Shown: positions 4,866-44,442 of the stretch, one piece after another | How positions within the stretch are numbered: the first letter of the stretch is position 1 | How the letters are laid out: the number at the start of each line of letters is the position of its first letter | The notes under the pieces: generated by a model | What the model saw: the letters and a program-made list of their open reading frames with translations, nothing else | What the model was told of the DNA's origin: nothing | Database searches by the model: none | Translations under genes and position numbers: made by a program | Source: an uncultured Elusimicrobia bacterium | GTDB lineage: Bacteria; Elusimicrobiota; Elusimicrobia; UBA1565; UBA9628 | Assembly (NCBI GenBank): GCA_903830945.1 | Contig: CAIKVT010000021.1 | Span: 4,519 to 68,518 of the forward strand | Direction of reading: 5' to 3' | DNA length: 64,000 nt

Positions 4866-7502
4866 TCAGAGCAGTCCGGATAGACTTGCCACCAGTTGGT
4901 CCCAGTCCGCCTCGGGCAGCCCGCCCTGCGCGAAATCGGCCCGACCCCCGGCTGAACCCCCGTGCGCCGCCGCGAATTTTTTTGCCAGGGAGCCAGCGTC
5001 AAAGCCCTTGCCGGCCAAGTCCGGGGTCGCGGCCAGCACGAACGAGATCTTGCCTGCATGCGGCGCGGCTAAGAACACCGCGCCCGAGCCCAGCTCGGAT
5101 TTCAGCTTGTCCGATATGCCGCGCAAAGATTTCGGGTCCGCGCCATCGAGCTTCTGCACGCAGAGCTTGATCCCCTTGGCTTCCAGGACCTGGCGCCCCT
5201 CGGTCGTGCCTGCGAGCCTCTTGGCCTTGAGGCCTATCAGAGCGTTCTCCAGGCTCTTCAAGTGCGTGCGCAGAGACGCTTCCTCGCGCATCGCGCAGGG
5301 AGCGGCTTGCCCGTCCAGCGAGCGGATATCCTTGAGTAAGGCGTCCTGTTTTGCCACGAGTTGCGCCATCGCGGCCTTGTGCGCCTCCGCCTTCTTCACC
5401 ACCCATTCGCTGGCCGCCGGCCCAGCCACCGCCTCGATGCGTCGGATTCCCGCGGCCACCGACGACTCCTTCACGATCTTGAAAGTCTCGATCTCCGCGC
5501 TGTTGGACACGTGCGTGCCCCCGCAGAGCTCCAGGCTGAAGCGGTTATGCGGCTCCTGCCAGCCTTTGGCGCTCACCAGCACCGCGCGTGCCTTCTGTCC
5601 GTAGTCTTCTCCCAATAAGGTGATGGCCCCATGCCTCGCCGCCTCGGCCGGAGGCATCTCCTGGGTGTCCACGGGCAATGCCTTGCGGATGGCATCGTTG
5701 ACGATCTGCTCGATGAGCCTGATCTCTTCTGCGGTCACGGCCTTTGGATGTGTGAAGTCGAAACGCAGACGTTTGTCGTCAACATAGGAGCCCGCCTGGC
5801 GCACGTGCGCTCCCAGCAGCTCGCGTAAGGCCTGGTTCAAGAGATGCGTGGCCGTGTGGTGCGCCGTGGTGCGGCGGCGGCGCTGGGCATCGACTTCGGC
5901 GAGTACCTCGTCGCCGGGCTTGAGCGGAACCATGGCAGAAGCCGCCTTGACCATGAGCACCGTGGAAGCCTCGTACTTCTGAGTGTCCAGGACCTCGGCT
6001 AAGAGCGTGCGGCCGTCCGCGGAGAGGAGCTCTCCCGTGTCGCCGACCTGACCGCCGCTCTCCGCGTAGAATGGCGTGCGCTCTAGGACCACGATGCCCT
6101 CGGCCCCTTGGAAGCGCGCGTCTAAGACTTTGGTCTTTTCGGAGAGACTTTTATAGCCCATAAAAACTGTCGCGTGGGCTGCCAGGCCCTGGGAGAGCAT
6201 GTTTTTCTCCCCGGAGCCCTTCCATGAGGATCGGGCCACTTCGGCCGCGGCCTCTGTGGCCTTCTGGAAGCCCTCTTCGTCGACCTGGATGTGGCGCTGG
6301 AGGCAGATCTCCTTGGTGAGCTCGAGCGGGAATCCGAACGTGTCGTAGAGCTTGAAGGCCTGGTCTCCGGGAAAGGTCCCGGAAGTCTTTTCCAACAGGG
6401 TCATAAGTTCGCGCTCGCCCGCGGCCAGGGTCTCGATGAATCGGCTCTCTTCCATCTTCAAGCCGGTGACCACCTGGGCTTCGGCTGGGACGATCTCGGG
6501 ATAAGTGTTTCGAAAGATCTCCAGCACTGCGGGCAGGAGCTTGTAGAGGAACGGCTCCTGACAGTCCAAGAGTTGCCCGTAGCGCACCGCGCGGCGGATA
6601 AGCCGGCGCAGGACGTAGCCGCGCTCCACGTTGGAGGGGATCACTCCCTCGCTCATCAGCATGGCCGCGGCTCGGGCGTGGTCCGAGATGACCCGGAAGG
6701 CTAGATCCGTATCAGGAGAACGATCAGGATCCACCCCGAGTATGTCCGCGGCCTTGCTCACGATAGGAGTGAAGAGGTCCGTGTCGAAGGGGGAGAGCTT
6801 GCCCTGCGCCACGAAAGCCAGCCGCTCCAAGCCCATGCCCGTGTCGATGTTCTGGCGCGGCAGGGGCTTGAGGCTCCCGTCGCCCTGCCGGTCGAACTGC
6901 GTGAAGACCAGGTTCCAGATCTCGATGTAGCGGTCGCAGTCGCAGCCCGGCGCGCAGGAGGGGCTCGCGCAGGCGAAACGCGCGCCGCGGTCGAAGTATA
7001 TCTCGGAGCACGGCCCGCAGGGCCCCGTCGGTCCCATGGCCCAGAAATTGGTGTCCTCGCCCAATCGCCCGACCGGGTTCTTCAAGGCGAGCTTGCCCCA
7101 GAGAGCGGCGGCCTCTTCGTCGTCTTTGAACACCGTGGGATGCAGCAGCTTCGCATCGAGGCCCATGTCTTGGGTCAGGAATTCCCAGGCCCAGGGGATG
7201 GCTTCGGACTTGAAATAGTCGCCGAAGGAGAAATTGCCCAGCATCTCGAAGAAGGTCAGGTGCCGCAAGGTTTGGCCTACGCGGTCGATGTCCGTGGTGC
7301 GGAAGCACTTCTGGCAGCTCGCGGCGCGGGTGAGGTCCTTTTTGATGCCCAGGAAGTAGGGCTTGAAAGGAACCATGCCTGCGGAGTTGAACATCAGCGT
7401 CGGATCGCCCTGCGGGATGAGGGGAGTCGAAGGGCGCACTATGTGGCCCCGGCTCGTGAAAAAATCAAGGTATTGCTGTCTTAATTGAATTCCAGTTTTC
7501 AT
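4866..7502 (-). CDS. alaS: Alanine--tRNA ligase
   Basis: 878-aa ORF. The N-terminus RPSTPLIPQGDPTLMFNSAGMVPFKPYF is the class II AlaRS signature. The editing and C-terminal domains are of the expected length. Confidence 0.95.
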   Translation of the reverse strand: MKTGIQLRQQYLDFFTSRGHIVRPSTPLIPQGDPTLMFNSAGMVPFKPYFLGIKKDLTRAASCQKCFRTTDIDRVGQTLRHLTFFEMLGNFSFGDYFKSEAIPWAWEFLTQDMGLDAKLLHPTVFKDDEEAAALWGKLALKNPVGRLGEDTNFWAMGPTGPCGPCSEIYFDRGARFACASPSCAPGCDCDRYIEIWNLVFTQFDRQGDGSLKPLPRQNIDTGMGLERLAFVAQGKLSPFDTDLFTPIVSKAADILGVDPDRSPDTDLAFRVISDHARAAAMLMSEGVIPSNVERGYVLRRLIRRAVRYGQLLDCQEPFLYKLLPAVLEIFRNTYPEIVPAEAQVVTGLKMEESRFIETLAAGERELMTLLEKTSGTFPGDQAFKLYDTFGFPLELTKEICLQRHIQVDEEGFQKATEAAAEVARSSWKGSGEKNMLSQGLAAHATVFMGYKSLSEKTKVLDARFQGAEGIVVLERTPFYAESGGQVGDTGELLSADGRTLLAEVLDTQKYEASTVLMVKAASAMVPLKPGDEVLAEVDAQRRRRTTAHHTATHLLNQALRELLGAHVRQAGSYVDDKRLRFDFTHPKAVTAEEIRLIEQIVNDAIRKALPVDTQEMPPAEAARHGAITLLGEDYGQKARAVLVSAKGWQEPHNRFSLELCGGTHVSNSAEIETFKIVKESSVAAGIRRIEAVAGPAASEWVVKKAEAHKAAMAQLVAKQDALLKDIRSLDGQAAPCAMREEASLRTHLKSLENALIGLKAKRLAGTTEGRQVLEAKGIKLCVQKLDGADPKSLRGISDKLKSELGSGAVFLAAPHAGKISFVLAATPDLAGKGFDAGSLAKKFAAAHGGSAGGRADFAQGGLPEADWDQLVASLSGLL

Positions 7503-7553: not shown

Positions 7554-8810
7554 CTACTGGGAGATGATGTCGGCGCTCGGCACGTCGCCTAGGGTGAGCC
7601 AATGCTGGAAAGCTTTTACAAACAAGGAATCCGCGCCGCCCTGCCATTCGTGGCCGTAGTTCTGGCGGTACACGTTGATGCGCCACTTGTTGTCTTCGAA
7701 GCGCACATAGAAAATGACATTGGGGGATGATAGGTCCGGGTCGCGGCCTGCGCTCGCGTGGGTCAGACTGCGGCCGTTGAAATCGGCGTAGACGAAGACG
7801 CCGTCACGGGAGATCTCCTCGATGGATTTTCCCGACCGGCTCAGCATGTTGTTGGCCACGTCGCGCATCAGGTCGCCCTGCTGGTTGCGGGGATAGCGCG
7901 CCAGGAGGAGGTCAAAACGTTCCTGGGTCAGTACGGAATCGAGGATGCGGTCAGCCTGCTCCTTGGAATTCGTACCCGCCAGAATCCTGGTCAGACCGCG
8001 CTTCTTGACCGTTTCCTCGATATGGGCCGGGGACGCCCCATATTTTTTGGCAGCCTCCAGGATGGATGGCCCCGAACTGCGCAGCCGGGGGTCCAGCTGT
8101 GCGACCGCCTCCTCCTGGGCCTTGAGCATGGAGGCCAGCAACTCGAGCCGCAGGGCTCGGCCCCTTTTTGAAGCGGGCGCGATGCCTTTCGCGGACATGT
8201 AATCTTCGAGCAGGGCTGCGGTCTCGGCATCGGTCGGCGTTTGGGAGCCCATGATGCCTCGGATGTAGTGCCGCGCTCCTTTGGCATCCGGAGTCTGGAT
8301 CACCGCTCCGGCCTGCCCAGTCAGGCTGGCGGCGGTGGCTTTAGCGCGCTCGATCAGCTCTGGTCCCGGCGGGCTGCGTGGCTGCTCTGTGTACTCCGCT
8401 GTGGGCTGTCCAGCTGGTGACTTTTCGCTGGAAATCGTTGTCACAGGCGCGCTCGGAGTATTCAGCGCGGACTGCGGCAAGGAGAGAGGCGCCAGAACGC
8501 TTGGCGCGCAGGGGTGTTGGGCGACCTCGAGCGGCAGAGGGGCAATCGCAAAAATCGGGCCTTGGATTATCGGCACGCTGATCGGAGTTTGGATTGGAGG
8601 CAGCAGGCCGGGGGCGGTCATCCCCGTGCTTGGCGGGGCGATGTGGGCGTTGCTGCCGGAAAGCGGATTACCTACGGATACGGCTTCGCTTGCGGAGTTT
8701 GCCGTGGTCTTGGCCTCTGCCGCCCAGCCCGGCGCCGTGAAGATAAAAAGTGCCGTCGCCAGCGGGGGAATCCTCCTGGTCCGCACCATGTTTGAAGTGT
8801 AGGCGGACAT
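7554..8810 (-). CDS. Secreted Pro/Ala-rich hypothetical protein
   Basis: 418-aa ORF with a signal-peptide-like N-terminus and a low-complexity Pro-rich linker. The C-terminal globular region has no recognised motif. Confidence 0.5.
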   Translation of the reverse strand: MSAYTSNMVRTRRIPPLATALFIFTAPGWAAEAKTTANSASEAVSVGNPLSGSNAHIAPPSTGMTAPGLLPPIQTPISVPIIQGPIFAIAPLPLEVAQHPCAPSVLAPLSLPQSALNTPSAPVTTISSEKSPAGQPTAEYTEQPRSPPGPELIERAKATAASLTGQAGAVIQTPDAKGARHYIRGIMGSQTPTDAETAALLEDYMSAKGIAPASKRGRALRLELLASMLKAQEEAVAQLDPRLRSSGPSILEAAKKYGASPAHIEETVKKRGLTRILAGTNSKEQADRILDSVLTQERFDLLLARYPRNQQGDLMRDVANNMLSRSGKSIEEISRDGVFVYADFNGRSLTHASAGRDPDLSSPNVIFYVRFEDNKWRINVYRQNYGHEWQGGADSLFVKAFQHWLTLGDVPSADIISQ

Positions 8811-8914
8811 ATTTCTGATGTCAAGGGTCCTGGGGACCCCGATCCTCGGTCAGCAATGACATCATTGACTAGAGAATGCGACTTCTGTTATAACATCATG
8901 CGTCTCGCTTCTCG

Positions 8915-9895
8915 ATGAACCTGAAAAAAAGTCTCAAGGAGCTTCTGAACCGCAAGATCACCGTGATAGTGATCCCGACTGCGGCTTTCAGGCCCTGGCG
9001 CTGGCAGTGTACCATCGCGTTTGGGATGTTCTGCCTGGTGCTCTGGTCCGGCGTCACCATCTGGGCCGGGTTCATCGCGGGCCGCCATGTCGACTACTGG
9101 ATCACTAAGGCCGACAACCGCGTGATGCTGGCGAAGATGGGCTATCTCGCAGGAGAGATGGAGAAGGCGCGCGACACCCTTGATGTCGCTAAGGCCACGG
9201 ACCGCCAAATGCGGGTCCTTCTTGGCTTGGCCCATCGCGAGGACCTCCTCGGCAATAATACGGCGGTGGGCGGCCCTACGGCTGCGGACCGCATCAGCCT
9301 GCGCCGCTTGCTGGCCATCGACCCGGCCAGCGTCCGGCAGACCGACTGGCACCGCCAGATCGAGGCACTACGCCAGGAGTCCATGAAGCGTCTGGCCAGC
9401 TTCCAGGAGATCGGCTGGTACATCGGCAACCAGCGCAGCCTTCTGCACGCCACACCCTCCATGTGGCCGACGTCGGGGCAGATCACTTCCTTGTTCGGCT
9501 ATCGGCTTTCTCCCATACAACGTGCGGAGGGTGATCAGGGAGAGTGCCACTCCGGAGTGGACATCGCCAACCGGCCCGACACCTTGATCTACGCCACGGC
9601 CAACGGGACCGTGCGCCTCGCGGGCTGGACTTCCGGCTACGGCCAGGCCATCGTCATCGACCACGGCTACGGTATCTCCACGCTCTATGGCCATACTTCC
9701 AAGTCTTTGGTCCAAGCCGGCGATCGTGTGACCCGTGGACAGGTCATTGCGTACATGGGCACCACCGGGCGCTCCACCGGCGCGCACCTGCATTATGAGA
9801 TCCGGCGCAGCGGCCAGCCGGTCAACCCTATGATCTTCCTTAAGGTCCGTTCCGCCGAGGACCTCCTGGGCTACGCCCAGGCCGCGGGGCGCTGA
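8915..9895 (+). CDS. M23 family metallopeptidase (peptidoglycan DD-endopeptidase-like)
   Basis: 326-aa ORF with an N-terminal TM segment. M23 motifs are present: HSGVDIA, GHTS and HLHYEIR. Confidence 0.9.
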   Translation: MNLKKSLKELLNRKITVIVIPTAAFRPWRWQCTIAFGMFCLVLWSGVTIWAGFIAGRHVDYWITKADNRVMLAKMGYLAGEMEKARDTLDVAKATDRQMRVLLGLAHREDLLGNNTAVGGPTAADRISLRRLLAIDPASVRQTDWHRQIEALRQESMKRLASFQEIGWYIGNQRSLLHATPSMWPTSGQITSLFGYRLSPIQRAEGDQGECHSGVDIANRPDTLIYATANGTVRLAGWTSGYGQAIVIDHGYGISTLYGHTSKSLVQAGDRVTRGQVIAYMGTTGRSTGAHLHYEIRRSGQPVNPMIFLKVRSAEDLLGYAQAAGR

Positions 9896-9899
9896 GGCT

Positions 9900-10295
9900 A
9901 TGTTCGACGCCAAGGAAGGCCGGTTCGACAGCAACGAGTCCATGACTCTGATCGGCGAGGAAGCCTACGTCCACGGCCAGCTCGCGGCCAAGGGCTCCTT
10001 GCGCGTGGAGGGATCCGTGGAGGGCGACATCACGGATGCGGTGTCCGTGGAGATCGGCAAGAAAGGCCGGGTGAAGGGCAATGTCGCCGCGGAGACGGTC
10101 TCCATCGCGGGCGAGTTGGAGGGAGATGTCGTCGCTTCTCGGACCGTGGAGATTCTGGCTCAGGCGCGCCTACACGGCAATGTCCGCGCGCCGAACCTGC
10201 GCGTCGAGGACGGGGCTTTCTTCGAGGGGACTTGCACTATGCGCGGCGGGGATGAACCCGTGGCCGCGTCGGTTAAGGGGAGGAACGCCGCGTGA
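9900..10295 (+). CDS. Bactofilin (DUF583 polymer-forming cytoskeletal protein)
   Basis: 131-aa ORF with beta-helical bactofilin repeats (GSLRVEGSVEGDI..VEIGKKGRVKGNV..VSIAGELEGDV). It starts 5 nt after the M23 gene and overlaps the next gene by 4 nt. Confidence 0.85.
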   Translation: MFDAKEGRFDSNESMTLIGEEAYVHGQLAAKGSLRVEGSVEGDITDAVSVEIGKKGRVKGNVAAETVSIAGELEGDVVASRTVEILAQARLHGNVRAPNLRVEDGAFFEGTCTMRGGDEPVAASVKGRNAA

Positions 10296-11074
10296 TATCT
10301 TTTTTGAACCGTTACCGTAAGACCCTGTTCATCGCGATCGTGGTTGTGTTCCTCCTTGGCACATTCGTTGGCCTGGGCGGATATCTTTTCACCAGCCGGG
10401 ATACGACCCAGGCCGTGGCCTCGGTGGGCTCCGTGAAGATCCTCTATCAGACCTACCGGTCCCGGGTCGACCAGTACGTAGACGCCTTGCGCAACCGCAA
10501 CGGGGAGGTCTCGGACGCCGCGGTCAAAGAGATCAAGGTCAATATGCTGCGGGAGATGATCACCGACGAGATGCTCTTGGTCAAGGCCGAAGAGATGGGC
10601 ATCAGGGTCACCGATGCTGAGTTGGCGCGCGACATCCGCGGCACGCCCGCCTTCCAGTCTGGTGGGGAATTCAGCTCCGAGGCTTACTTCCGCGCCGTGC
10701 GCGCCGCGTTTCGCGACACACCGCAGGGCTATGAGGAGATGCGGCGGCGCAGCTTGGTGGCCGGCCGCCTTAAGCAGCTCATCTTTCAAGCCGCTAAACT
10801 GACCCCCGGCGAGTTGGCGGTGTTCTCCGCCAAGGATCGCGACGCGGCCGAGAAGGATTTCAAGAAGGCCATGGCGCTGCGCCACAAGGATGCCGCGGCC
10901 GCGAAGCTCACCCCCGCCGAGTTCAAGGAGCGCTTCTTCCAGCAGCGCAAGGAATCCGTCGCGGCCCAGGCTCAGCAGATGCGCGCGCAGGAGCTTTTCA
11001 TTTCCTTGCTGCGCCAGGTGAGCTCCCAGGTCGAGATCAAGTCTTTCCTGGAACAGAGGGAGAGCGGTACGTGA
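10292..11074 (+). CDS. SurA N-terminal-domain-like periplasmic chaperone (PpiD/SurA-N family, no PPIase domain)
   Basis: 260-aa ORF with an N-terminal TM/signal anchor and a helical chaperone-like domain (MLREMITDEMLLVKAEEMGIRVTDAE). Confidence 0.5.
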   Translation: MISFLNRYRKTLFIAIVVVFLLGTFVGLGGYLFTSRDTTQAVASVGSVKILYQTYRSRVDQYVDALRNRNGEVSDAAVKEIKVNMLREMITDEMLLVKAEEMGIRVTDAELARDIRGTPAFQSGGEFSSEAYFRAVRAAFRDTPQGYEEMRRRSLVAGRLKQLIFQAAKLTPGELAVFSAKDRDAAEKDFKKAMALRHKDAAAAKLTPAEFKERFFQQRKESVAAQAQQMRAQELFISLLRQVSSQVEIKSFLEQRESGT

Positions 11075-11166: not shown

Positions 11167-12123
11167 ATGGATTCCATCGTGGTGGTAGGCTCGGTCGCGC
11201 TCGATTCGGTGAAGACCCTGTGCGGGGAGAGCCAGGAGGCTTTGGGCGGTTCGGCCGTGTACTTCTCCCTGGCCGCCCGGCATTTCGCGCGAGTGACGGT
11301 CGTCGGCGTCATAGGTAAGGATTTCCCTAAGGAGCACCGCCGCATGTTGGCCGAGAAGGGCATCGACCTCTCGGGCCTCAAGGAACTTCCGGGCAAGACA
11401 TTTCGCTGGGTTGGAAAGTTCGGCCGCGACCTCTCCGATGCCAAGACTTTGGCCACGCACCTCAATGTCTTCGCCAAGTTCAAGCCCAAGCTCACGCCGG
11501 CACAGAAGAGATCTCGGGTCGTGTTCCTGGCCAATATCGATCCCGACCTGCAGGCCAGCGTCCTCGACCAGATGCAGAACCCGGATTTGGTCGCTTGCGA
11601 CACCATGAACTACTGGATCATGTCCAAGCCCGACGCCCTGCGGCGCTTGCTGGCACGGGTGCACATCTTTTTCGTCAACGATGCTGAGGCCAAGCTCCTC
11701 TCCCGCCAGTCCACGGCCTTGCATGCCGCGCGTGTCATCTCGCAATGGGGGCCTCAGGTGGTGGTGGTCAAGAAGGGCGAGCACGGCGCTCTCATGAAGG
11801 TGGGCGAGCGCTCTTACGCCTTTCCGGCCTACCCCGTGGAGTCGGTCAAGGACCCTACGGGCGCGGGCGACACCTTTGCGGGAGGCTTCATGGGCTATCT
11901 GACCTCGACCCGCGACTACGACGACATCGGAAACCTCAAGCGCGCCATGCTCTACGGCACGACCTTGGCCTCTTTCAACGTGGAGGATTTCAGCACCCGG
12001 CGCCTGGAGAACCTCCAGCGCACGGCCCTGCAGGCGCGTTTCGACGAGTCCGTTGACTCGCTGCATGTGCCCCACGGGCCTTTCTCGACCCGCGGTCCGT
12101 TGTTGCGCGAAGCGCGCCGCTAA
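11167..12123 (+). CDS. PfkB family carbohydrate kinase
   Basis: 318-aa ORF with the ribokinase-family motif DPTGAGDTFAGGF and an N-terminal GG motif. The 393-aa minus-strand ORF over the same DNA is a shadow. Confidence 0.8.
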   Translation: MDSIVVVGSVALDSVKTLCGESQEALGGSAVYFSLAARHFARVTVVGVIGKDFPKEHRRMLAEKGIDLSGLKELPGKTFRWVGKFGRDLSDAKTLATHLNVFAKFKPKLTPAQKRSRVVFLANIDPDLQASVLDQMQNPDLVACDTMNYWIMSKPDALRRLLARVHIFFVNDAEAKLLSRQSTALHAARVISQWGPQVVVVKKGEHGALMKVGERSYAFPAYPVESVKDPTGAGDTFAGGFMGYLTSTRDYDDIGNLKRAMLYGTTLASFNVEDFSTRRLENLQRTALQARFDESVDSLHVPHGPFSTRGPLLREARR

Positions 12124-12218: not shown

Positions 12219-13019
12219 ATGAGCCATAAGATTGGACTTCTGCTGTGCGTCCTCATCGCGCCCGTCTCCCTTTCGGCGAGGGGAGGACAGCCTACGCCTT
12301 CAGGGACGGCGCTTCCCGGCGCGTCGAAGCCAAAGATCGCCGTGGTCCTGGATGATTTCGGGCTGACCTATAAACCTAACGTCAAGGACGAGGCATGGAT
12401 GGCCGTGACTTGGCCGGTGACCTTCGCGGTGATGCCTACTTATAAGAAGAATAAGTATGGGATGAATACTGTGACTGCGGCACGGACGGCGAAAGCCGCC
12501 GGGCACGAAATCATCATCCACTTTCCCTTCGACCCATTCCTGAAGCTGGACTTGCCCAAGGATAGGGTCTCGCCGGGGGATTTGGACGCGGTGCGCAAAT
12601 TGTTGAGTGAAAGCCTGCGCGACATGCCTGGCGCAACGGGCATCAATAACCACCGGTCCTATCAGGCGACCATGAACCGGCCGTTGATGGTCGCCTTCAT
12701 GCGGGAGCTCAAAGGCAAGGGGTTGTACTTTTTGGACAGCCACGTCTCGCCCAAAAGCGTGGCCGGTCCGGAGGCGCGCCAGGCGGGACTGAAGGTGGCA
12801 GTCAACGATATCTTTCTGGAGTCGCCGCCGCACTACAACAATATGCCTTTCTGCCAGAAAGTGATGCGTCAGGTCGCGGCCATGGCGCGCAAGCGGGGCT
12901 CGGTCGTGGTCATCGGGCATCATTATTTCCCCGGCACTTATGAGTGCCTTAAGAAAGAGGTACCGAGGCTGCAGGCCGAGGGCTTCGAGTTCGTCTTCGC
13001 CTCAGACCTGGCGAAATAA
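12219..13019 (+). CDS. Divergent polysaccharide deacetylase family protein (YibQ-like)
   Basis: 266-aa ORF with a signal peptide and the KIAVVLDDFG motif of the divergent polysaccharide deacetylase family. Confidence 0.7.
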   Translation: MSHKIGLLLCVLIAPVSLSARGGQPTPSGTALPGASKPKIAVVLDDFGLTYKPNVKDEAWMAVTWPVTFAVMPTYKKNKYGMNTVTAARTAKAAGHEIIIHFPFDPFLKLDLPKDRVSPGDLDAVRKLLSESLRDMPGATGINNHRSYQATMNRPLMVAFMRELKGKGLYFLDSHVSPKSVAGPEARQAGLKVAVNDIFLESPPHYNNMPFCQKVMRQVAAMARKRGSVVVIGHHYFPGTYECLKKEVPRLQAEGFEFVFASDLAK

Positions 13020-13110: not shown

Positions 13111-13194
13111 TGCCCAGGGAGGGAATCGAACCCACACGGCCTTGCGGCCACTGGATTTTGAGTCCAGCGCGTCTGCCAGTTCCGCCACCTGGGC
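13111..13194 (-). tRNA. tRNA-Leu (anticodon CAA)
   Basis: The reverse complement reads gcccaggtggcggaactggcagacgcg..ctggaCTCAAAAtccag..long variable arm..gtgggttcgattccctccctgggca. The anticodon loop is ctCAAaa and the long variable arm is typical of Leu. Confidence 0.85.
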
Positions 13195-31932: not shown

Positions 31933-33690
31933 ATGGCTGAAGTCGCCGTCGACATCGCGACCGTTCGGCACTCCTGCGCTCACGTGCTGGCGCAGGCCGT
32001 GCAGGACCTTTTCCCGGGAACCAAGCTCGGCATCGGCCCGGCCATCGAGAACGGTTTCTACTACGACTTCGATACCCAGCACCACTTCGTCCCGGAGGAC
32101 CTGCCCCGCATCGAGGCGCGCATGCGTGAGATAGCGGAGGCGCGTCAGGCCTTCGTGCGCGCCGAGTGCACGAAGGACGAGGCCAGCGAGTTCCTCAAAA
32201 AGTCGGACGAGAAGCTTAAGATCGAGCTCCTGGGGGACCTTAAGGATGCGACGGTCAGCTTCTATACCAACGGCCCCTTCACCGATATGTGCCGCGGCCC
32301 CCATGTCGCCGACACCGGGGAGATCCGTCATTTTAAGCTGACCTCCATCGCCGGCGCCTACTGGCGCGGCGATGAGAAGCGGCCGATGCTGCAGCGTATC
32401 TACGGCACGGTTTGGACGACCCAGGATCAATTGGACGGTCACCTTAAGATGCTGGAGGAGGCCAAGGCGCGGGACCATCGCAAGTTGGGTCAGGCTCTGG
32501 AGCTTTTCAGCATCGACGAGGCGGCCGGCCCCGGTCTCATCCTGTGGCATCCCAAGGGCGCGCGCATACGCATGGCCATAGAGGAGTGGCTCAAGGGCGA
32601 GGCTCTCCGGCGCGGCTACGAATGGATATACACCCCGCATATCGCGCAACTTTCTCTCTGGCAGACCTCGGGGCATGCCAGTTTTTTCCGGGAGAGCATG
32701 TTCCAGCCGCTGGAGGTGGAAAAGGCGCAGTATCAGCTCAAGCCGATGAACTGCCCTTTTCATATCCTCATCTATAAAAGCCGGCTGCACAGTTATCGCG
32801 AGCTTCCGCTGCGCTTCGCCGAATTGGGCACGGTTTACCGCTACGAGCGCTCAGGGGTTCTGCATGGCCTCTTGCGGGTTCGGGGCTTCACGCAGGACGA
32901 TGCCCATATTTTTTGCGCGCCGGAGAGCATCGAGTCCGAGATCGACGGCTGCATCGATTTCGCGTTGGCGGTGCTCAAGACCTTCGGCTTTGAGAAATAC
33001 ACCGTCGACCTGTCCACTTGGGATCCGGACAAGCGTTCCGACTACAGCGGCGAGGCCGAAGATTGGAAGCGCGCCCAGGGCGCCCTTGAGACCGTGCTCA
33101 AGCGTCGGGGCATCGATTTCCGCCTGATCCCGGGCGAGGCCGCCTTCTATGGTCCGAAGATTGATTTTAAGCTCATCGACGCCATCGGGCGCTCCTGGCA
33201 GTTGACTACTATCCAGTTCGATTTCAATCTTCCCGAGAAGTTCGGCCTGGAGTACGTGGCCGAGGACGGGCAGCGGCGCCGGCCGTTTATGGTGCACCGG
33301 GCTTTGCTGGGTTCCCTGGAGCGTTTTTTCGGGATCCTCATTGAACACTACGCCGGGAAATTCCCGCTGTGGCTCTCGCCGGTGCAGGTCAAGATCCTCA
33401 CCATCACGGACGCCCAGGCCGACGCCGCGCAAGGCTTGGCGCGCCGTCTGGAGGACGCCGGCCTGCGCACGGCTCTGGATCTGCGTCCGGAGAAGGTCGG
33501 CGCCAAGGTGCGCGACGCCACGCTGGAGAAGATCCCTTACATGGTTGTCCTGGGCCCCAAGGACCTCGCGGCCGGCGTGCTTTCCGTGCGCCTGCGTGAC
33601 GGCCGGCAGGTCGGCGGACTCAAAGAGGAGGATTTCATGACCAAGCTCAAGGCCGAGATCGCCGGCAAGACGGCGACCCTATCGCTATGA
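31933..33690 (+). CDS. thrS: Threonine--tRNA ligase lacking the N-terminal TGS (N1) domain
   Basis: 585-aa protein that begins directly at the editing-domain motif (RHSCAHVLAQAV). Class II catalytic and anticodon-binding regions follow (FRESMFQPLEVEK.., YRYERSGVLHGLLRVRGFTQDDAHIF). The track ORF start at 31750 would run through the tRNA. Confidence 0.9.
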   Translation: MAEVAVDIATVRHSCAHVLAQAVQDLFPGTKLGIGPAIENGFYYDFDTQHHFVPEDLPRIEARMREIAEARQAFVRAECTKDEASEFLKKSDEKLKIELLGDLKDATVSFYTNGPFTDMCRGPHVADTGEIRHFKLTSIAGAYWRGDEKRPMLQRIYGTVWTTQDQLDGHLKMLEEAKARDHRKLGQALELFSIDEAAGPGLILWHPKGARIRMAIEEWLKGEALRRGYEWIYTPHIAQLSLWQTSGHASFFRESMFQPLEVEKAQYQLKPMNCPFHILIYKSRLHSYRELPLRFAELGTVYRYERSGVLHGLLRVRGFTQDDAHIFCAPESIESEIDGCIDFALAVLKTFGFEKYTVDLSTWDPDKRSDYSGEAEDWKRAQGALETVLKRRGIDFRLIPGEAAFYGPKIDFKLIDAIGRSWQLTTIQFDFNLPEKFGLEYVAEDGQRRRPFMVHRALLGSLERFFGILIEHYAGKFPLWLSPVQVKILTITDAQADAAQGLARRLEDAGLRTALDLRPEKVGAKVRDATLEKIPYMVVLGPKDLAAGVLSVRLRDGRQVGGLKEEDFMTKLKAEIAGKTATLSL

Positions 33691-33701
33691 GGCGGTTCAA
33701 C

Positions 33702-36700
33702 ATGTCCAAGCATACCAGATTCCTGGCGCACGGCAGTGCGCTGGCCGTTCTGCTCGTGCTGGCTCCGGCCTTCGCCTCCGCTCGCGCCATCACGCAGACC
33801 ACGGCGGAGGAGGAAGCCTTCGGCGCTGGCGCGCAGATGTACCAGGAGACGGGGCGCGATAAGATGGCCGTGGTTCAGGCTTTCGAGAATTTTATGAGCC
33901 AGTTCCCGCAGAGCCCGCGCGTGGCCGATGCCAACTTCATGATCGGCGAGGCCTACCTCGATCAGGCCTTGAGCATCCTCAAGGCCGAAGCCACCGCCAA
34001 GAAGAACTCGGCGGCGCGGCTCCTGGCGCCCAAGAACCCGGCCGCAGCCGTGGCCCTGGAGAATGCCGCCAAGGCCTTTCAGGCCGTCGCCGGCGATAAG
34101 AAATCCGGGCTTGCGCCCTCGGCCCTGTATCGCCTGGGCGAGGTCTATTATAATGAAAAGGATTGGAGCCGGGCCGTCGACGACTTCCGCGACGTGGAGA
34201 AGAACTTCTCCAAGTCCTATATCGTGCCGGAGGCGCTGTTGGGGGTCATCTACGCGGACCTAGCCCTGGAGCAGTTCTCTCAGGCCGAGGCTAACCTCTT
34301 CCTTCTTGGCGAGACCGACCCTGTATTCCTTAAAGAGCCATTGGTGCTCTACGCACAGGGAATCGTGAGCTTGCATAAGGGCGACTATTCGGCGGCCGAG
34401 GCCACCTTGAAAGCGGTGAAAACCGCCGAGGCCCAGTATTACCTGGGTAAGACTTACCTGCTCTCCAAGCGAGCCTACTTGGCCGCGGCCGCTTTCGAGA
34501 ACCTCATCCGCGACTATCCGGACTCCGACTTAAAGGAAGAGGCTCAGTTCTTCATTGGTGATTCCTTCTTTTTGGCCGAGGATTTTGACGGCGCCATCTC
34601 CAAGTACCAGAAGTTCCTCTCGTTCTACCCGGACTCCCCCTTGCGCGTCTCGGCTATGTTCCGCATCGGATCCTCCTACTTTCAAAAGAAGGATTTTGTG
34701 GAGGCGCGCGCCAACTTCCAGTCCGTTCTGGACCGCTATCCTAAGGACTTCTTCGCTCCGCTGGCCCAGTACTTCATCGCCGAGTCCTATCTCGTGGCCG
34801 GGCAAGTGCGCGAGGCCATGTTCGCCTACACCAAGGTCATCACCCAGTATCCGGAGACCGCCAAGGTCTCTCCACTGGCGCACTTCAAGCTGGCTTGGAC
34901 GGGCTATCAGGTGGGGGATTACACTCAGGCCTTGCAGACCTGCAACAACTTCGTGGCTCTCTATCCCACAAACGCCTTGGCCAAGAACGTCTACCTCGTC
35001 ATGGGCAATGCCCTCATCAAGCTCAAGCGCTATCAGGAAGCTACGGCCGCCCTCCAGCGCATCATCGACCTGGCACCATCATCGGACGTCGCGGAGCAGG
35101 CCCTCTTCACCATTCTGAAGAACCAGTTCGATCAGAAGGCTTATAATTCAATCCTTACTTCCTATCAGTTCATCTTCCGACACCTGCCGCCTTCCAAATC
35201 CAAGTGGCGCAGCATGAGCTATCTTTACGCGGCCGAGGCTTATTTAACCCTCAATCAGACGGAGGAAGCCAGGGTCATCTATGAGATGATCCTCAAGGTC
35301 TATCCTGACGACCCGGCCGCCTTCTACGCGCAGGACGGCCTGGCCTGGGCTTATTCCTATCAGGGCCAGGACGACCAGGCCCTGGTGGAGCGCCAGAAGC
35401 TTAAGGCCATGCTCTCGGCCGAGACCTCGACCTTCACCTTCTCGGGATTGAACGAGTTGGGCATCGCGGATAGCCTCTATAACCAGAAGTCCTATGACGA
35501 CGCCTTCCAGCTCTATAATAAGTTCGTCGACGGCAATCCCAAAGCGTCGGAGGCGCCGTCCGCCCTCTATCGCGCGGGCATGAGCCTCTACCACCAGCGC
35601 TACTACACCCAGGCCATCGAGACCTGGCGCAAGCTTCAGGCCAACTATCCACAGGCCAAGGAGACGGTCCAGGCCGTGGTCCAGATCGCCGACACTTTGT
35701 TCCGCGCCCAGAAATACGACGAGTCCATTGCCGCCTACAGAGGCATCATCACCAACTATCCACAGAGTGAACAGCTGCCCATGGCCTACCTGCGCATCGC
35801 CCAGGCGGCCTTCAATAGCAACAATGATGATGCTGCGGTCAAGCAGGTCCGGGAGCTGGTGGCGAAGTTTCCCAAGGCTCCTGAGTCGACGGACGGCATG
35901 GATCTCCTGGAGGCTATTTTCGACCGCAATAAGTCCGTCAATTATAAGACTTTTCTGCGCGAGTTGGTCGCGGCCAACCCAGCCAGCCCCATCGCCGCGG
36001 AAGCGCAGTTCCGCCTGGCGCGGCGCTGCTTCGAGGCCAAGGACTTCGCCACGGCTGCCGTGGAGTTTCAGAAATTCAGCGTGGACTTCACCAACAATTC
36101 TCAGCTGGTCAAGGCCCAGTTCTACCTGGGGGAGAGCTACTTGAGCCAGAATGATTACGCTAACGCCATCCCCGCTTATGAGCGCCTGCTTAATAACTTT
36201 GATAAGGACGAAGACACGCCGCTGACGTTGTTCCACTTGGCCAGCGCCAATTACGCCCTCAAGAAGTACGATGAGGCGGTGAAGTACTACACCCGCCTGG
36301 GGGAGGAGTATCCCAAGGCGTCCTACGCTAAGGAGACCCAGTTCAATTTGGCCCTGGCCTACAAGGCACTGGGCAAGGCTGACTTGGCCCAATACGCTTA
36401 TCAGAAGTATATCGAGCTGGTCGGCGACACTGACCCTCTGGCCCAGTCGGCGCTCTGGGAGATCTTCAGTCTGCAGAAGGACCGCCGGGATTACGATGGG
36501 GCGCTGTCGACTCTCCAGCAGATACAAGGCCACGCCCAACCGGGTTCGGATACGCCGTTTGAAGCGACCTACCGCATGGGCGAGATTGACTTGGCCATTA
36601 ACCGGCCGGACGAGGCCATGAACATATGGGTGAAGCTTCAGGGCATGAAGCCCGCCAACAATCCTTTCCGCCTCGACGCCTTGATCAAGCTCGGCGAGGC

Positions 36701-37013
36701 CTACGAGAAGGCTTCGGACAATGAGCGGGCCGTCATCGTCTATGAGGACTTGGCCCACAACGCGGGTCGGGAGATCGCCCAGTCGGCCGCGGCCAGGGCC
36801 GCGGCCCTGCGCCGACAAGGCGGGGGGGGCAAGGCCTCCGGTGAGCCGGATCAGAAGTGGGCAGCTCCGGCGTCGCGCAAGGGTGCCATCCGTAACAAGA
36901 AGGTCCCGGCCAGCGCGCCGGCGACGGTCCCGCAGGCGGCGCCCGCTGCGGCCCCCGTGGAGAAGGCCGGGTCGCTCAATCTGCCCGGGATGACAGGCGG
37001 CGAAGGGCAATAG
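33702..37013 (+). CDS. Giant secreted tetratricopeptide-repeat protein (CpoB/YbgF-like TPR repeats many times over)
   Basis: 1108 aa with a signal peptide (LAHGSALAVLLVLAPAFASA). TPR-like ~34-aa repeats recur throughout (..EAxxxYxxxxxxYPxSxxxxxAxFxLGxxY..). The C-terminus is Ala/Pro-rich. It lies directly upstream of the tolQ-like gene. Confidence 0.8.
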   Translation: MSKHTRFLAHGSALAVLLVLAPAFASARAITQTTAEEEAFGAGAQMYQETGRDKMAVVQAFENFMSQFPQSPRVADANFMIGEAYLDQALSILKAEATAKKNSAARLLAPKNPAAAVALENAAKAFQAVAGDKKSGLAPSALYRLGEVYYNEKDWSRAVDDFRDVEKNFSKSYIVPEALLGVIYADLALEQFSQAEANLFLLGETDPVFLKEPLVLYAQGIVSLHKGDYSAAEATLKAVKTAEAQYYLGKTYLLSKRAYLAAAAFENLIRDYPDSDLKEEAQFFIGDSFFLAEDFDGAISKYQKFLSFYPDSPLRVSAMFRIGSSYFQKKDFVEARANFQSVLDRYPKDFFAPLAQYFIAESYLVAGQVREAMFAYTKVITQYPETAKVSPLAHFKLAWTGYQVGDYTQALQTCNNFVALYPTNALAKNVYLVMGNALIKLKRYQEATAALQRIIDLAPSSDVAEQALFTILKNQFDQKAYNSILTSYQFIFRHLPPSKSKWRSMSYLYAAEAYLTLNQTEEARVIYEMILKVYPDDPAAFYAQDGLAWAYSYQGQDDQALVERQKLKAMLSAETSTFTFSGLNELGIADSLYNQKSYDDAFQLYNKFVDGNPKASEAPSALYRAGMSLYHQRYYTQAIETWRKLQANYPQAKETVQAVVQIADTLFRAQKYDESIAAYRGIITNYPQSEQLPMAYLRIAQAAFNSNNDDAAVKQVRELVAKFPKAPESTDGMDLLEAIFDRNKSVNYKTFLRELVAANPASPIAAEAQFRLARRCFEAKDFATAAVEFQKFSVDFTNNSQLVKAQFYLGESYLSQNDYANAIPAYERLLNNFDKDEDTPLTLFHLASANYALKKYDEAVKYYTRLGEEYPKASYAKETQFNLALAYKALGKADLAQYAYQKYIELVGDTDPLAQSALWEIFSLQKDRRDYDGALSTLQQIQGHAQPGSDTPFEATYRMGEIDLAINRPDEAMNIWVKLQGMKPANNPFRLDALIKLGEAYEKASDNERAVIVYEDLAHNAGREIAQSAAARAAALRRQGGGGKASGEPDQKWAAPASRKGAIRNKKVPASAPATVPQAAPAAAPVEKAGSLNLPGMTGGEGQ

Positions 37014-37034
37014 GCGGCGCCCAAGGAGAACCTG

Positions 37035-37652
37035 ATGCTCGGCGACAATAGCGTGCTGGTGATGCTCAAAGACAGTTTTACCCTCATCATCCTCGGTTTC
37101 TGCTCCGTGCTCAACATCACGTTTATGATCGAGCGCTGGTGGACCATCCGCAGGGCGCAGGGCAGTGGAGACGCCATCTTGACCCACGTGCATAAGTTCC
37201 TGCAGGAGGGCAAGGCCGAGGCGGCCCAGCAGTACTGCCACAAGCATCCCTCCGCGGTCGGCCAGGTCATCTATTACGGCCTGCTGCACGCCTCGCGGCC
37301 GCGCAAGGACCTCGATGAGCTGCTCGCGAGCAAGCGTTTGGAGGAGCGACTCAAGCTCGAGCGCTATCTGGGCGTGCTGGGCACGCTTGGCAACATCGCG
37401 CCTTTCATCGGCCTTTTCGGCACGGTCGTGGGCATAATCAAGGCCTTCCGCGATCTGGCTCTCTCGGGTGGGGGCGGCCCGGCGGTGGTGGCTAGGGGTA
37501 TCGCCGAAGCGCTGGTGGCGACTGCGGGGGGCCTCGTGGTGGCCATTCCGGCGGTCATCATCTATAATTATTTCATGCGTAAGGTGAAGACCATCTCGGT
37601 AGAGATGGAGGTGGCATCGATCCGGCTGATGGTCATGCTGGGGTCCAAGTAG
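37035..37652 (+). CDS. MotA/TolQ/ExbB proton-channel family protein
   Basis: 205-aa protein with 3 TM segments and conserved C-terminal TM helices (LGTLGNIAPFIGLFGTVVGII). Confidence 0.85.
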   Translation: MLGDNSVLVMLKDSFTLIILGFCSVLNITFMIERWWTIRRAQGSGDAILTHVHKFLQEGKAEAAQQYCHKHPSAVGQVIYYGLLHASRPRKDLDELLASKRLEERLKLERYLGVLGTLGNIAPFIGLFGTVVGIIKAFRDLALSGGGGPAVVARGIAEALVATAGGLVVAIPAVIIYNYFMRKVKTISVEMEVASIRLMVMLGSK

Positions 37653-37659
37653 AGGGAGC

Positions 37660-38091
37660 ATGGCTGGAGCGAGCCAGAAGGCCGACGAGCCAATCGTCGA
37701 CATCAACGTCACACCTCTGGTGGACGTGTGTCTGGTCCTGGTCATTATCTTCATGGCCGTAGCACCCATGGCCATGACCTGGGGCATCACCGTGCTCCAT
37801 TCCAAGGCCAAGACCGCCGAAGGCAAGGCCTCCATCGAGGAGAACGTCCAGGTCAAGCTTACGGTCGACGGCAAGCTCACGGTCAATGGCGCGGCCGTTC
37901 CTGCCGGCGGGCTGGCGGGCAAGATCTCGGAGGCCCTCGTGCGCAGCAAGGACAAGATGGTCACGGTCACGGCTGACGAGGGCAACCATGTGGGCGATGT
38001 GGTGGAAATCCTGGACACGGCCAAGCAGGCTGGCGCGGCCAAGGTCGCGATCTTGAAGAACGAGACCGCGCCTCCGGCTCCTAAGGGATGA
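37660..38091 (+). CDS. ExbD/TolR biopolymer transport protein (copy 1)
   Basis: 143 aa with the INVTPLVDVCLVLVIIFM TM signature. Confidence 0.85.
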   Translation: MAGASQKADEPIVDINVTPLVDVCLVLVIIFMAVAPMAMTWGITVLHSKAKTAEGKASIEENVQVKLTVDGKLTVNGAAVPAGGLAGKISEALVRSKDKMVTVTADEGNHVGDVVEILDTAKQAGAAKVAILKNETAPPAPKG

Positions 38092-38510
38092 GAATGTCAC
38101 GCACCGAATCCTCATTGGATGGCGACGATATCGTCTCGGGCATCAATGTGACGCCCTTGGTGGATGTTTGCCTGGTTCTGGTCATTATCTTCATGGTGAC
38201 CGCACCCATGCTTTCGGATCCGGTCATCAAAGTCGACTTGCCAAAGGCTCATACTAAGGAAGGAGAAGAGAAGGAAAAGATCACCATCACCCTGGGTAAG
38301 GACGGCCGCATGGCCTTGGATTATAAGGAATACAAGACCTTTGAAGCCATGGAGCCGGAACTCAAGGATAAGCTGGCCGGCAGCGAGTCCAAACTCATCA
38401 TCCTCAAGGCGGATGAGAACGCTTTACACGGCAGATTGGTGGACCTCATGGCCAAGGCCAAGGACGCGGGGGCCCAGTCGTTGACCATAGCCACGGAACG
38501 AAAGAAATAG
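38088..38510 (+). CDS. ExbD/TolR biopolymer transport protein (copy 2)
   Basis: 140 aa with the same INVTPLVDVCLVLVIIFM signature. The start overlaps the previous stop. Confidence 0.85.
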   Translation: MRMSRTESSLDGDDIVSGINVTPLVDVCLVLVIIFMVTAPMLSDPVIKVDLPKAHTKEGEEKEKITITLGKDGRMALDYKEYKTFEAMEPELKDKLAGSESKLIILKADENALHGRLVDLMAKAKDAGAQSLTIATERKK

Positions 38511-38528
38511 CGAGGTGTCGAAAGAATC

Positions 38529-39578
38529 GTGACGCAGGCGCGCTTGCCAATGTCGGTGACGGCCTCCATGGCCCTGCATGTCGGGGGAATCTTCCTTTTC
38601 GTGCATATCTCGCAGATCGGGATCAAGGCGAAGTCCGTCGACATCCAGAATGTCGATATCATTCGTGTGTTTAAGCCCACTCCCGCGCCGCAGGTCAAGG
38701 TCAAGGCTCCGCCGCCGACCATCAAGGATTTCTTGAAGATGGCCCTACCGGCCGTGCATAGGCCCCAGCTCATGACCATGCAGGCCAAGCTCCCGGATAT
38801 CCGCCGGCCCCTGCTGCAGGCCACGCCCAAGCTCGAGGATAGGCACATGCAGCAACTGGCGAAGCTGGACGCCCTCGACCTCAATAAGCGCCGCGTGGAC
38901 GAGGCCCGGATCGATACGAAACTTGAAGAGCGCCATACGACGGCCTTAGCCGCCCTGCCGCGCCTGGAAGATGTGGGCCGGCGGCAGGTGCGAAACCTCC
39001 CCGCCGCCATCAAGCTTGAAGAGCAGCGTCAAGACGCCGTGGCTCTTAAGTCCATCCAGGGCATGGCGGTCTCGCCGACGCGCCGCGGCGTGGCCCCGGC
39101 GGAGGTGCTCCAGGAGGCCACTCCCCAACAGAGTTCGCGGTTGGCAAGGATCACCAGCTTCCTGCCGACGGCTTCCGAGTCTGTCCAGCTTCAGCCGCGG
39201 GCCGCGGAGCCTCCGCCTATGATGAAGAAGATCGAGATTGCGCCTCCCTCGCCCAAACGCACGGCCTCCGTCCAGCAGGAGAAGAAGAGAACCGTGGAGA
39301 TCGAGGGTCCCTTGGCCAATCGAAGGGTGCTGTCCTACGATGTGCCTCAGTTTCCGGATTGGGCCAAACAGCGCAACATCATCGAGGCCGAGGTCGTGAT
39401 CCTCTTCTATGTGGACTCGGAAGGCAACGTCCTCTCGGACATGCGCGTCGAACACACTTCCGGTTACGGCCAGCTCGACCGCCTGTCCATGGACAGCCTG
39501 CGTAACTGGAAGTTCGTTCCCATCAGCAGCAGTGAAAGGCAATGGGGAAAAATCACATTCCGTTTTATTCTGGAGTGA
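38529..39578 (+). CDS. TonB/TolA-like energy-transducer protein (TonB C-terminal domain)
   Basis: 349 aa with an N-terminal TM, a long Pro/Lys-rich periplasmic linker and a C-terminal TonB-C fold (AEVVILFYVDSEGNVLSDMRVEHTSGYGQLDRLSMDSLRNWKFVP). Confidence 0.75.
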   Translation: MTQARLPMSVTASMALHVGGIFLFVHISQIGIKAKSVDIQNVDIIRVFKPTPAPQVKVKAPPPTIKDFLKMALPAVHRPQLMTMQAKLPDIRRPLLQATPKLEDRHMQQLAKLDALDLNKRRVDEARIDTKLEERHTTALAALPRLEDVGRRQVRNLPAAIKLEEQRQDAVALKSIQGMAVSPTRRGVAPAEVLQEATPQQSSRLARITSFLPTASESVQLQPRAAEPPPMMKKIEIAPPSPKRTASVQQEKKRTVEIEGPLANRRVLSYDVPQFPDWAKQRNIIEAEVVILFYVDSEGNVLSDMRVEHTSGYGQLDRLSMDSLRNWKFVPISSSERQWGKITFRFILE

Positions 39579-39580
39579 CA

Positions 39581-40531
39581 ATGAAGAGCACGAAACAAGT
39601 CCTCTGTTTTTCGGCGGGTCTTTTGGCCGCGTTATGGGCCCTCCCGGCGGCAGCCGCCACGGCCGGGGGTGAGACCGGCTTCCCCGCTGAGGTTGAGATC
39701 AAGGCCGCGAGCGGGGCGAACAAGCTCAACGTGGTCAAGCCGCCATTGAGCATCGAGGTGGACTCCTTCGAGACCATCCGCCCCTCTTTGGAGCCCGACC
39801 AGTCGTTGCTTTTAGCCGTCTCGCCCCTGACCGTTTCTTGGCGCCGCACCCATCCCGAGTATCTGCATAATCGGCGCGTCATTGAGCCCTGGCTCATGAC
39901 CTTCAGCCAGAGGCCGGGCATAGCGCTGCGGGTGCGCGACCAGCTTTTCGCTTTCCTGGGGCGCAAGCTCGACCCTAAGGAGGCTAAAGGTTACGCCTGG
40001 AATCTGACCATCGCCGACGAGGAAGGCCGGGTATTCCATCACTATGAGAGCTCCAGCGACCCGCCGGAGGAGCTCGTCTGGAGCGGCCAGAACGACCAAG
40101 GCGAGTGGATCAAGGCCGGCCGCTCTTATTCGGCCGTCTACACTTTCACAGACTCGCTCGGATCCCCGCATACCACCGTTGGCAAGCCGATCTTGTTCAA
40201 AGGCATCGTGCATCAGGAAGATACGGGCCTGCATGTGACTCTCGATTCCTCGGTCCTCTTCGGCACCACCAAGGCGGCAACCGAGATCGTTCACCCCGGA
40301 GGCGTGGATCTGCTGCGCTCCGCGGCCGACCTCATCAAGCGGCGCTCTACGGGTATCCCCATATCGGTGCGCGTCTTCGCCAACACTAAAGAGCTCGCTG
40401 ATGCTCAGGGCACCGTGGTCCAGAGTGTGCTCATCCACGAACTCATGACCATGAGCAAGAATGTGGCCGTGGAAGGGGCCCGGGCCGCCTTCTCCGATCA
40501 GAGGGTGGAAATCGTCCTCCTAAATCGGTAG
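39581..40531 (+). CDS. Secreted hypothetical protein, possibly with a degenerate OmpA/Pal-like C-terminal domain
   Basis: There is a signal peptide (MKSTKQVLCFSAGLLAALWALPAAAA). The C-terminus (VTLDSSVLFGTTKAATEI..ISVRVFANTK..RVEIVLL) resembles the OmpA-like peptidoglycan-binding fold in spacing but lacks the GHTD motif. It sits in the Pal position of a Tol-Pal-like cluster. Confidence 0.4.
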   Translation: MKSTKQVLCFSAGLLAALWALPAAAATAGGETGFPAEVEIKAASGANKLNVVKPPLSIEVDSFETIRPSLEPDQSLLLAVSPLTVSWRRTHPEYLHNRRVIEPWLMTFSQRPGIALRVRDQLFAFLGRKLDPKEAKGYAWNLTIADEEGRVFHHYESSSDPPEELVWSGQNDQGEWIKAGRSYSAVYTFTDSLGSPHTTVGKPILFKGIVHQEDTGLHVTLDSSVLFGTTKAATEIVHPGGVDLLRSAADLIKRRSTGIPISVRVFANTKELADAQGTVVQSVLIHELMTMSKNVAVEGARAAFSDQRVEIVLLNR

Positions 40532-42873
<2,342 letters not shown>

Positions 42874-42905
42874 ATGCCCGAGGAATATTGCTATAATTTG
42901 ACACT

Positions 42906-43247: not shown

Positions 43248-43254
43248 CGATTTA

Positions 43255-43336
43255 GCGCGGGTGGCGGAACTGGCAGACGCGTACGTTTGAGGGGCGTATG
43301 GGGAAACCCGTGGGGGTTCAAGTCCCCCCCCGCGCA
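43255..43336 (+). tRNA. tRNA-Leu (anticodon GAG)
   Basis: The sequence reads gcgcgggtggcggaactggcagacgcg, then stem tacgt/gcgta with loop ttGAGgg, a long variable arm and T-arm gggggttcaagtccccc. The acceptor is gcgcggg/cccgcgc with discriminator a. Confidence 0.8.
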
Positions 43337-44429: not shown

Positions 44430-44442
44430 CCGCGATCGCGAC

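Follow-up and report, generated by a model that had tools for sequence, protein, structure and literature searches.

I analyzed a stretch of 64,000 nucleotides (hereafter called the window) from an uncultured Elusimicrobia bacterium (GenBank assembly GCA_903830945.1, contig CAIKVT010000021.1, positions 4,519 to 68,518 of the forward strand). It was found that the genes for an M23 endopeptidase, a bactofilin, and a membrane-anchored chaperone of the SurA/PpiD type form one compact cluster in the window, and that this triad is kept in Elusimicrobia and in several divergent lineages. Names attached to almost identical public proteins also put the organism in the Elusimicrobia. My reading is that a known morphogenetic module is accompanied here by a previously undescribed accessory chaperone. 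It is reasonably likely that the cluster is a conserved envelope-morphogenesis operon, in which a bactofilin/LmdC-type M23 module is joined by a co-translated "mini-PpiD" acting as a module-associated chaperone. The three genes and the region preceding them are as follows (lengths in amino acids, aa):

8811..8914, no strand: divergent intergenic region of 104 nucleotides, free of open reading frames (ORFs), presumed operon promoter
8915..9895, plus strand: predicted LmdC-type bitopic M23 endopeptidase, 326 aa (PF01551, 1.2e-34)
9900..10295, plus strand: bactofilin, 131 aa (PF04519, 7.7e-29)
10292..11074, plus strand: SurA/PpiD-like chaperone core ("mini-PpiD"), 260 aa (SurA_N_3, 5.8e-29)

All three ORFs lie on the plus strand at the coordinates given in a preliminary description of this DNA. 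That description also reported a tight coupling of the genes, with a first spacer of 5 nucleotides and then a 4-nucleotide overlap. On reading the sequence, the overlap was confirmed: the stop codon TGA of the bactofilin gene (10293-10295) and the start codon GTG of the chaperone gene (10292-10294) share the four nucleotides GTGA at 10292-10295. The first spacer is actually 4 nucleotides long, since the stop codon TGA of the M23 gene occupies 9893-9895, the spacer GGCT occupies 9896-9899, and the bactofilin ATG starts at 9900. A GGAGG sequence at 10279-10283, inside the bactofilin ORF, lies 8 nucleotides 5′ of the GTG start codon. The promoter role of 8811-8914 is presumed from position alone; a consensus scan of this region gave no sigma-70-like site on the plus strand, and its sole match lies on the minus strand (8824-8796).

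Is this gene order confined to one genome, a possibility that the preliminary description had raised? Species-representative genomes were scanned starting from the chaperone, which yielded 67 loci, all labelled Elusimicrobia or "bacterium", and hidden Markov models (HMMs) built from the window and three metagenomic loci were run on all ORFs of these loci. In 64 of the 67 loci, the M23, bactofilin, and chaperone genes follow one another in this order and in the same direction. The remaining three end at a contig edge just upstream, so that the triad is present in 64 of 64 assessable Elusimicrobia loci, and it was also found beyond them. Among the 67 loci, the identity of the chaperone to the window copy drops as low as 30%. 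The distance from the M23 gene to the bactofilin gene is mostly between -11 and +10 nucleotides. The bactofilin and chaperone genes overlap by 4 nucleotides in 26 of the 65 loci measured; in most of the others, they lie 5-43 nucleotides apart. Overall, most intergenic distances fall between -4 and about +15 nucleotides. Since the same order occurs in 64 of the 67 loci and recurs amid unrelated flanking genes, the arrangement is far beyond chance.

The search was extended with the M23 protein against representatives of clusters at 50% identity. It yielded many full-length relatives of 300-335 aa with about 30-48% identity, and the gene context was read for eight divergent ones. The triad was found in five of the eight divergent lineages sampled, where the M23 identity is 30-39%, the flanking genes are unrelated, and the guanine-plus-cytosine (GC) content ranges from 30 to 67%:

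L074: triad; Ser/Thr kinase, PP2C, and FHA genes upstream
L075: triad; TGT upstream, ApeI-like/ACP/KS cluster downstream; 30% GC; submitter label "Bacteroidetes bacterium"
L076/L077: triad with one unrelated gene between the bactofilin and the chaperone genes; labelled Omnitrophota or Elusimicrobia
L078: triad; sigma-54 gene upstream
L080: triad; ABC transporter downstream
L073: M23-bactofilin pair without the chaperone
L081: M23-bactofilin pair without the chaperone; Firmicute-like flanking genes
L079: M23 gene alone; Gemmatimonadota genome

In L076/L077, the inserted small gene (6305-6895, minus strand; 165-196 aa) has a faint HEAT repeat match, and despite the insertion the chaperone gene is still the next plus-strand gene after the bactofilin gene. 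The divergent chaperones belong to the same family, because the HMM derived from the Elusimicrobia chaperones detects them at 1e-21 to 1e-32. A profile search from four of them returned only 23 proteins, and these lineages are thinly sampled and of uncertain taxonomy. In summary, the association of the chaperone with the M23-bactofilin pair is old and withstands rearrangement, and it is not obligatory.

The M23 protein was then compared with known hydrolases. The Pfam Peptidase_M23 match spans residues 212-305 of the 326. The predicted layout comprises a cytoplasmic tail with a beta-hairpin (residues about 14-33), a membrane helix (about 34-57), a putative periplasmic coiled coil, and the M23 domain (about 183-310). 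In an alignment of 23 orthologues, H212 and D216 (HSGVD), H260, and H291 and H293 (HLH) are all invariant, in keeping with the two motifs that looked intact in the preliminary description, and the motifs align with the corresponding ones of Csd1. Thus, judging from its residues, the protein carries a complete zinc and catalytic site. The nearest solved relative of the M23 domain is Helicobacter pylori Csd1 (5j1l_A, 7.7e-28). The whole protein is strongly conserved, with the best 120 database matches all at least 60% identical. No second M23 gene was found in the cluster or in the 64-kb window.

An AlphaFold2 (AF2) model of the M23 protein was used for the N-terminal 50 residues only. In this part, where the predicted local distance difference test score (pLDDT) is 72-82, a short helix is followed by strands at 14-19 and 28-33 and by a long helix starting at residue 34, which includes the membrane segment. 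In the region that links the anchor to the M23 domain, the model places long helices at 34-107, 123-134, and 142-179, where the pLDDT is mostly below 60. The hydrophobic segment is preceded by seven K/R residues, consistent with an N-terminus inside and a C-terminus outside. The cytoplasmic tail contains a motif, [KR]-h-T-h-h-h-h-P, that is common to the window protein and to divergent full-length relatives from other lineages with 30-39% identity.

The bactofilin (PF04519, also DUF583) matches profile positions 1-97 of 98 with its residues 16-112 of 131. Its N-terminus is MFDAKEGRF, and most orthologues begin with MF-x-x-K/G. The published membrane-targeting consensus of bactofilins is MFSKKKK (PMC12448750). 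The M, the F, and the lysine agree with this consensus and the acidic residues depart from it, so that the N-terminus appears membrane-targeting-like and close to the consensus. No other bactofilin gene exists in the 64-kb window.

This combination of features resembles the LmdC-BacA module of Hyphomonas neptunium and Rhodospirillum rubrum. LmdC binds BacA through a conserved beta-hairpin in its short cytoplasmic region; a membrane helix and a periplasmic coiled coil connect this region to an active M23 domain, which cleaves DD-cross-links (PMC10945521). The window shares the adjacency of the M23 and bactofilin genes, and its predicted proteins share the bitopic M23 architecture and the catalytically complete M23 domain; the N-terminus of its bactofilin resembles the membrane-targeting type. 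By every feature that could be tested here on sequences and models, the pair belongs with the LmdC-BacA kind of module. Csd1 as the best solved relative and the LmdC-type architecture together bear out the link to cell-shape systems that the preliminary description had proposed. The binding, enzyme activity, and shape effects of LmdC-BacA are published, whereas the window module is known from its genes and from predictions. The finding of an M23-bactofilin pair in Elusimicrobia is correct but already published: Pohl et al. 2024 listed 226 species with the gene pair, and Elusimicrobium minutum Pei191 and Endomicrobium proavitum are in the supplementary table of pair-bearing species (PMC10945521). 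The difference lies in the third gene. The window adds a translationally coupled, apparently membrane-anchored chaperone, whereas the published analysis covered two genes only. A full-text literature search found no paper with bactofilin and PpiD together, only two papers, both unrelated, with bactofilin and SurA, and a single irrelevant one with Elusimicrobia and bactofilin. Within the reach of this search, the chaperone is an undescribed third member, as had been suggested.

What is the third protein? Pfam SurA_N_3 matches residues 1-159 of the 260 along profile positions 1-160 of 162, and SurA_N_2 matches at 3.4e-22. Of the NCBIfam PpiD model, only positions 15-234 of 626 match (7.6e-12; 44.7 bits against a cutoff of 493), and Pfam gave no match to the Rotamase (parvulin) family. 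The AF2 model (pLDDT 84.3) has a basic N-terminus, one hydrophobic helix at 9-35, and a mostly helical periplasmic body, in which the N-terminal hairpin 41-51 packs with the C-terminal strand 249-251 as in SurA. Since there is no Rotamase match and the PpiD model covers the chaperone with its first 234 positions only, the protein is, as far as sequence and model tell, a single-pass membrane-anchored SurA/PpiD chaperone core without a parvulin domain. The preliminary description had named a SurA-N-type protein; SurA_N_3 was confirmed, and the protein is not just the N domain but the whole N- and C-terminal core on a predicted membrane anchor. Relative to the usual 234-aa form, the window chaperone has an insertion of about 26 residues.

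A Foldseek search of the chaperone model against the PDB returned as the top match a SurA core (9hg9_F, 2e-5; TM-score 0.65, target-normalised), followed by PpiD-YfgM (8zht_A, 3.8e-5) and SurA minus one parvulin domain (2pv3_A, 5.8e-5). Lower matches include Leptospira LIC12922, Campylobacter Cj1289, and trigger factor. A profile of the chaperone family found nothing among the PDB sequences at E ≤0.01 and gave marginal SurA/PpiD matches at about 0.015-0.03; thus, the fold comparison alone is informative on the relatives of this protein. Across 65 sequences, conservation peaks in the glycine-rich membrane helix (block 21-30). This helix was considered as a sign of contact with the M23 anchor and was rejected, because the Pfam PpiD-type model already covers the segment, which is therefore a family trait.

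How might the three proteins work together? By analogy with LmdC-BacA of H. neptunium and R. rubrum, bactofilin polymers at the inner face of the cytoplasmic membrane would bind the hairpin of the M23 protein. Such capture would confine cross-link cleavage by the DD-endopeptidase to defined zones and might thereby determine the cell shape. The mini-PpiD, with its chaperone domain presumably in the periplasm, may assist the coiled-coil/M23 part in its exit from Sec, folding, stability, or restraint. This role is the most likely one on genomic evidence alone, namely the translational coupling and the persistent adjacency, and it would be analogous to that of Csd7, which stabilises Csd1 in H. pylori.

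Several points weigh against the chaperone being part of such a module. A contact with, or action on, the M23 protein or the bactofilin is suggested here by gene linkage only. L073, L079, and L081 carry the pair or the M23 gene without it, which is why it was called not obligatory. A possible crossing of phylum boundaries rests on the labels of the submitters and on the aryl-polyene-like neighbours in L075. The M23 model is of low confidence outside the N-terminus and the M23 core, with an overall pLDDT of 58.5. Moreover, the best-conserved parts of the chaperone, the N-terminal tail and the glycine-rich helix, are general traits of the PpiD family and thus fit a general Sec-associated role equally well. 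The main rival explanation starts here: the third gene may simply encode the general PpiD of the lineage, associated with the Sec translocon, having lost a dispensable parvulin domain, encoded in one transcript with other envelope genes, and with no specific tie to the bactofilin and M23 proteins. The N-terminal anchor and SurA_N_3 match PpiD from residue 1, the fold resembles both PpiD and SurA, and the most conserved block is a PpiD-type membrane helix. No second PpiD-like gene was found in the window or in the collected loci. The cluster also includes apparently unrelated genes for a PfkB kinase and a YibQ-like deacetylase, and in other bacteria the M23-bactofilin pair functions without such a chaperone gene. 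However, the adjacency outlives a full turnover of the flanking genes in at least six contexts with GC contents from 30 to 67%, which is unusual for an unrelated housekeeping gene, and 26 of the 65 measured loci share with the window the translational coupling by a 4-nucleotide overlap. I regard a general PpiD as possible, and clearly less probable than a module-associated chaperone. A stronger version of the latter can be offered only tentatively: the mini-PpiD could be a dedicated third subunit, tethered to the membrane, that binds the coiled-coil/M23 part and gates the activity or stability of the endopeptidase. If this is true, wall cleavage would be controlled from both sides of the membrane, by the bactofilin inside and the chaperone outside, and the mini-PpiD would be the first chaperone of the PpiD/SurA type with a peptidoglycan hydrolase as its specific client.

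It is quite improbable that the gene order is inherited synteny without functional meaning. Most loci come from one phylum and their flanks are partly kept, with AlaS upstream in 28 of 72 loci and the PfkB kinase downstream in 48 of 63, but the triad (64 of 64) is better conserved than either flank. It also turns up in places where none of the flanking genes is the same, and L076 keeps the chaperone gene next door despite the unrelated insertion. Still less probable is that the M23 protein is an inert amidase activator like EnvC, working with FtsEX at division, which would make the cluster one for division and not for shape. It does combine a putative coiled coil with a LytM/M23 domain, it matches the NCBIfam EnvC model at 2.2e-24 though far below the cutoff, and, as after envC in enterobacteria, a YibQ-family deacetylase gene is found downstream. 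EnvC has lost the zinc-binding and catalytic residues, whereas all of them are intact and invariant here. The model suggests a membrane anchor with a cytoplasmic hairpin and no cleaved signal peptide, the cluster lacks FtsE and FtsX genes, and the immediate partner is a bactofilin. The intact catalytic site and the membrane anchor exclude the EnvC/FtsEX explanation.

To place the module-associated chaperone among known proteins, the closest systems were compared. The Csd1-Csd2-CcmA-Csd7 system of H. pylori also has contiguous M23 and bactofilin genes. There, a third membrane protein, Csd7, keeps the hydrolase stable and connects it with the bactofilin, a functional analogy for a possible role of the mini-PpiD. 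The differences are that Csd7 is polytopic and no relative of SurA/PpiD, that the inactive paralogue Csd2 is also encoded next to the bactofilin gene in H. pylori whereas the window cluster has a single M23 gene and no Csd2-like paralogue, and that CcmA and Csd1 do not bind each other directly. The PpiD of Escherichia coli, which acts with YfgM at SecYEG, resembles the mini-PpiD in its single N-in anchor followed by a SurA-like N-terminal domain, consistent with the fold match to 8zht_A. It is longer than 600 aa (about 620), with a central parvulin domain and a large C-terminal domain, whereas the mini-PpiD has 260 aa and a short C-terminal helical part. Neither secY nor yfgM was found in the parts of the window that were scanned. 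The mini-PpiD is encoded inside a bactofilin-M23 operon; E. coli ppiD is not known to be. The SurA core and the parvulin-poor SurA-like chaperones LIC12922 and Cj1289/PEB4 are similar to the mini-PpiD in fold, and the best matches are SurA chains resolved without the parvulin domains. These proteins are soluble and periplasmic with signal peptides, whereas the mini-PpiD appears membrane-anchored, and the sequence similarity is marginal (E about 0.015). In Borrelia burgdorferi, bb0246 (M23), bbbB (bactofilin), and bb0244 form a co-transcribed operon (bioRxiv 10.1101/2025.04.09.647816). The likeness to the window is in the gene order, with an M23 gene, a bactofilin gene, and a co-transcribed downstream gene. 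In that study, the effects of depletion were ascribed to the bactofilin rather than to BB0244 (bioRxiv 10.1101/2025.04.09.647816).

Bactofilin-M23 modules are a widespread means of sculpting the bacterial wall. A chaperone that stays with such a module through extensive rearrangement is a concrete candidate for a hydrolase control or biogenesis factor on the periplasmic side. It may also offer a first way into the function of the many short proteins of uncultured diderm lineages that are annotated as "SurA N-terminal domain-containing". If the chaperone is only a general PpiD, the finding shrinks to a lineage-specific operon layout.

The flanks of the triad are less stable than the triad itself. 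The neighbouring genes in the window are as follows:

7554..8810, minus strand: divergently transcribed gene for a secreted protein, Pro-rich in its N-terminal half and with a signal-like start; an occasional neighbour
11167..12123, plus strand: PfkB-family sugar kinase (PF00294, 2e-28)
12219..13019, plus strand: divergent polysaccharide deacetylase, YibQ family (PF04748, 1.5e-44)

The PfkB kinase gene lies directly 3′ of the chaperone gene, often with a 4-nucleotide overlap, in 48 of the 63 assessable loci. Thus, the conserved unit usually includes a fourth gene. Every NCBIfam kinase model scored far under its cutoff for this protein. In 39 of 67 loci, a YibQ-type deacetylase gene with the same orientation is found further downstream. 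In Klebsiella pneumoniae (CP125156.1; L082, 2154-4385), a YibQ-family gene starts 3 nucleotides after envC, which encodes a coiled-coil LytM protein. Since both the 39 loci and Klebsiella envC show the link, the linkage of an M23/LytM gene to a YibQ-type gene is recurrent in very distant bacteria. Two terminator-like sites, at 11643-11662 and 12898-12918, were discarded; they lie inside coding regions, and the count of such sites is not above the shuffled expectation. In L005 (9095-11505) and L080 (6049-8422), whose contexts are otherwise unrelated, a pair of ABC_tran and ABC_tran_2 (553 aa) transporter genes lies downstream of the cluster. Each pair is followed by a deacetylase gene, of PF04748 in L005 and of PF01522 in L080.

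On the other side of the intergenic region, the divergent ORF at 7554-8810 exists as the preliminary description had reported, with a signal-peptide-like start and a Pro-rich stretch. Its product has no sequence match in Pfam, NCBIfam, or the PDB. The C-terminal part of about 240 residues recurs upstream, on the minus strand, in 16 related loci with 32-53% identity. The public gene call has 411 aa and starts at M8, which gives a cleaner signal-like sequence, MVRTRRIPPLATALFIFTAPGWA.

A few other parts of the window may be noted. Beyond the deacetylase gene, a tRNA gene lies at 13111-13194 on the minus strand, followed by a terminator-like hairpin with a 20-bp stem and a T-run (13100-13054). 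The start of the longest ORF for CbiM (13158) overlaps the tRNA gene, and the true start is probably about 13254, as in the public gene call. At 33687-46341 on the plus strand, a run of envelope genes encodes two TPR proteins, one of them with 1108 aa and a YfiO/BamD-like segment, as well as a TonB_C protein and an OmpA-family protein. The run is interrupted by gap and pgk and looks Tol-Pal/Bam-related. Because the window encodes OmpA, TonB_C, and the YfiO/BamD-like TPR protein, the organism is a diderm with a periplasm. Finally, a gene at 54689-58225 on the plus strand encodes an 1178-aa protein with two phosphatidylethanolamine-binding (PBP) domains and five PKD domains, which is unusual for a bacterial surface protein.

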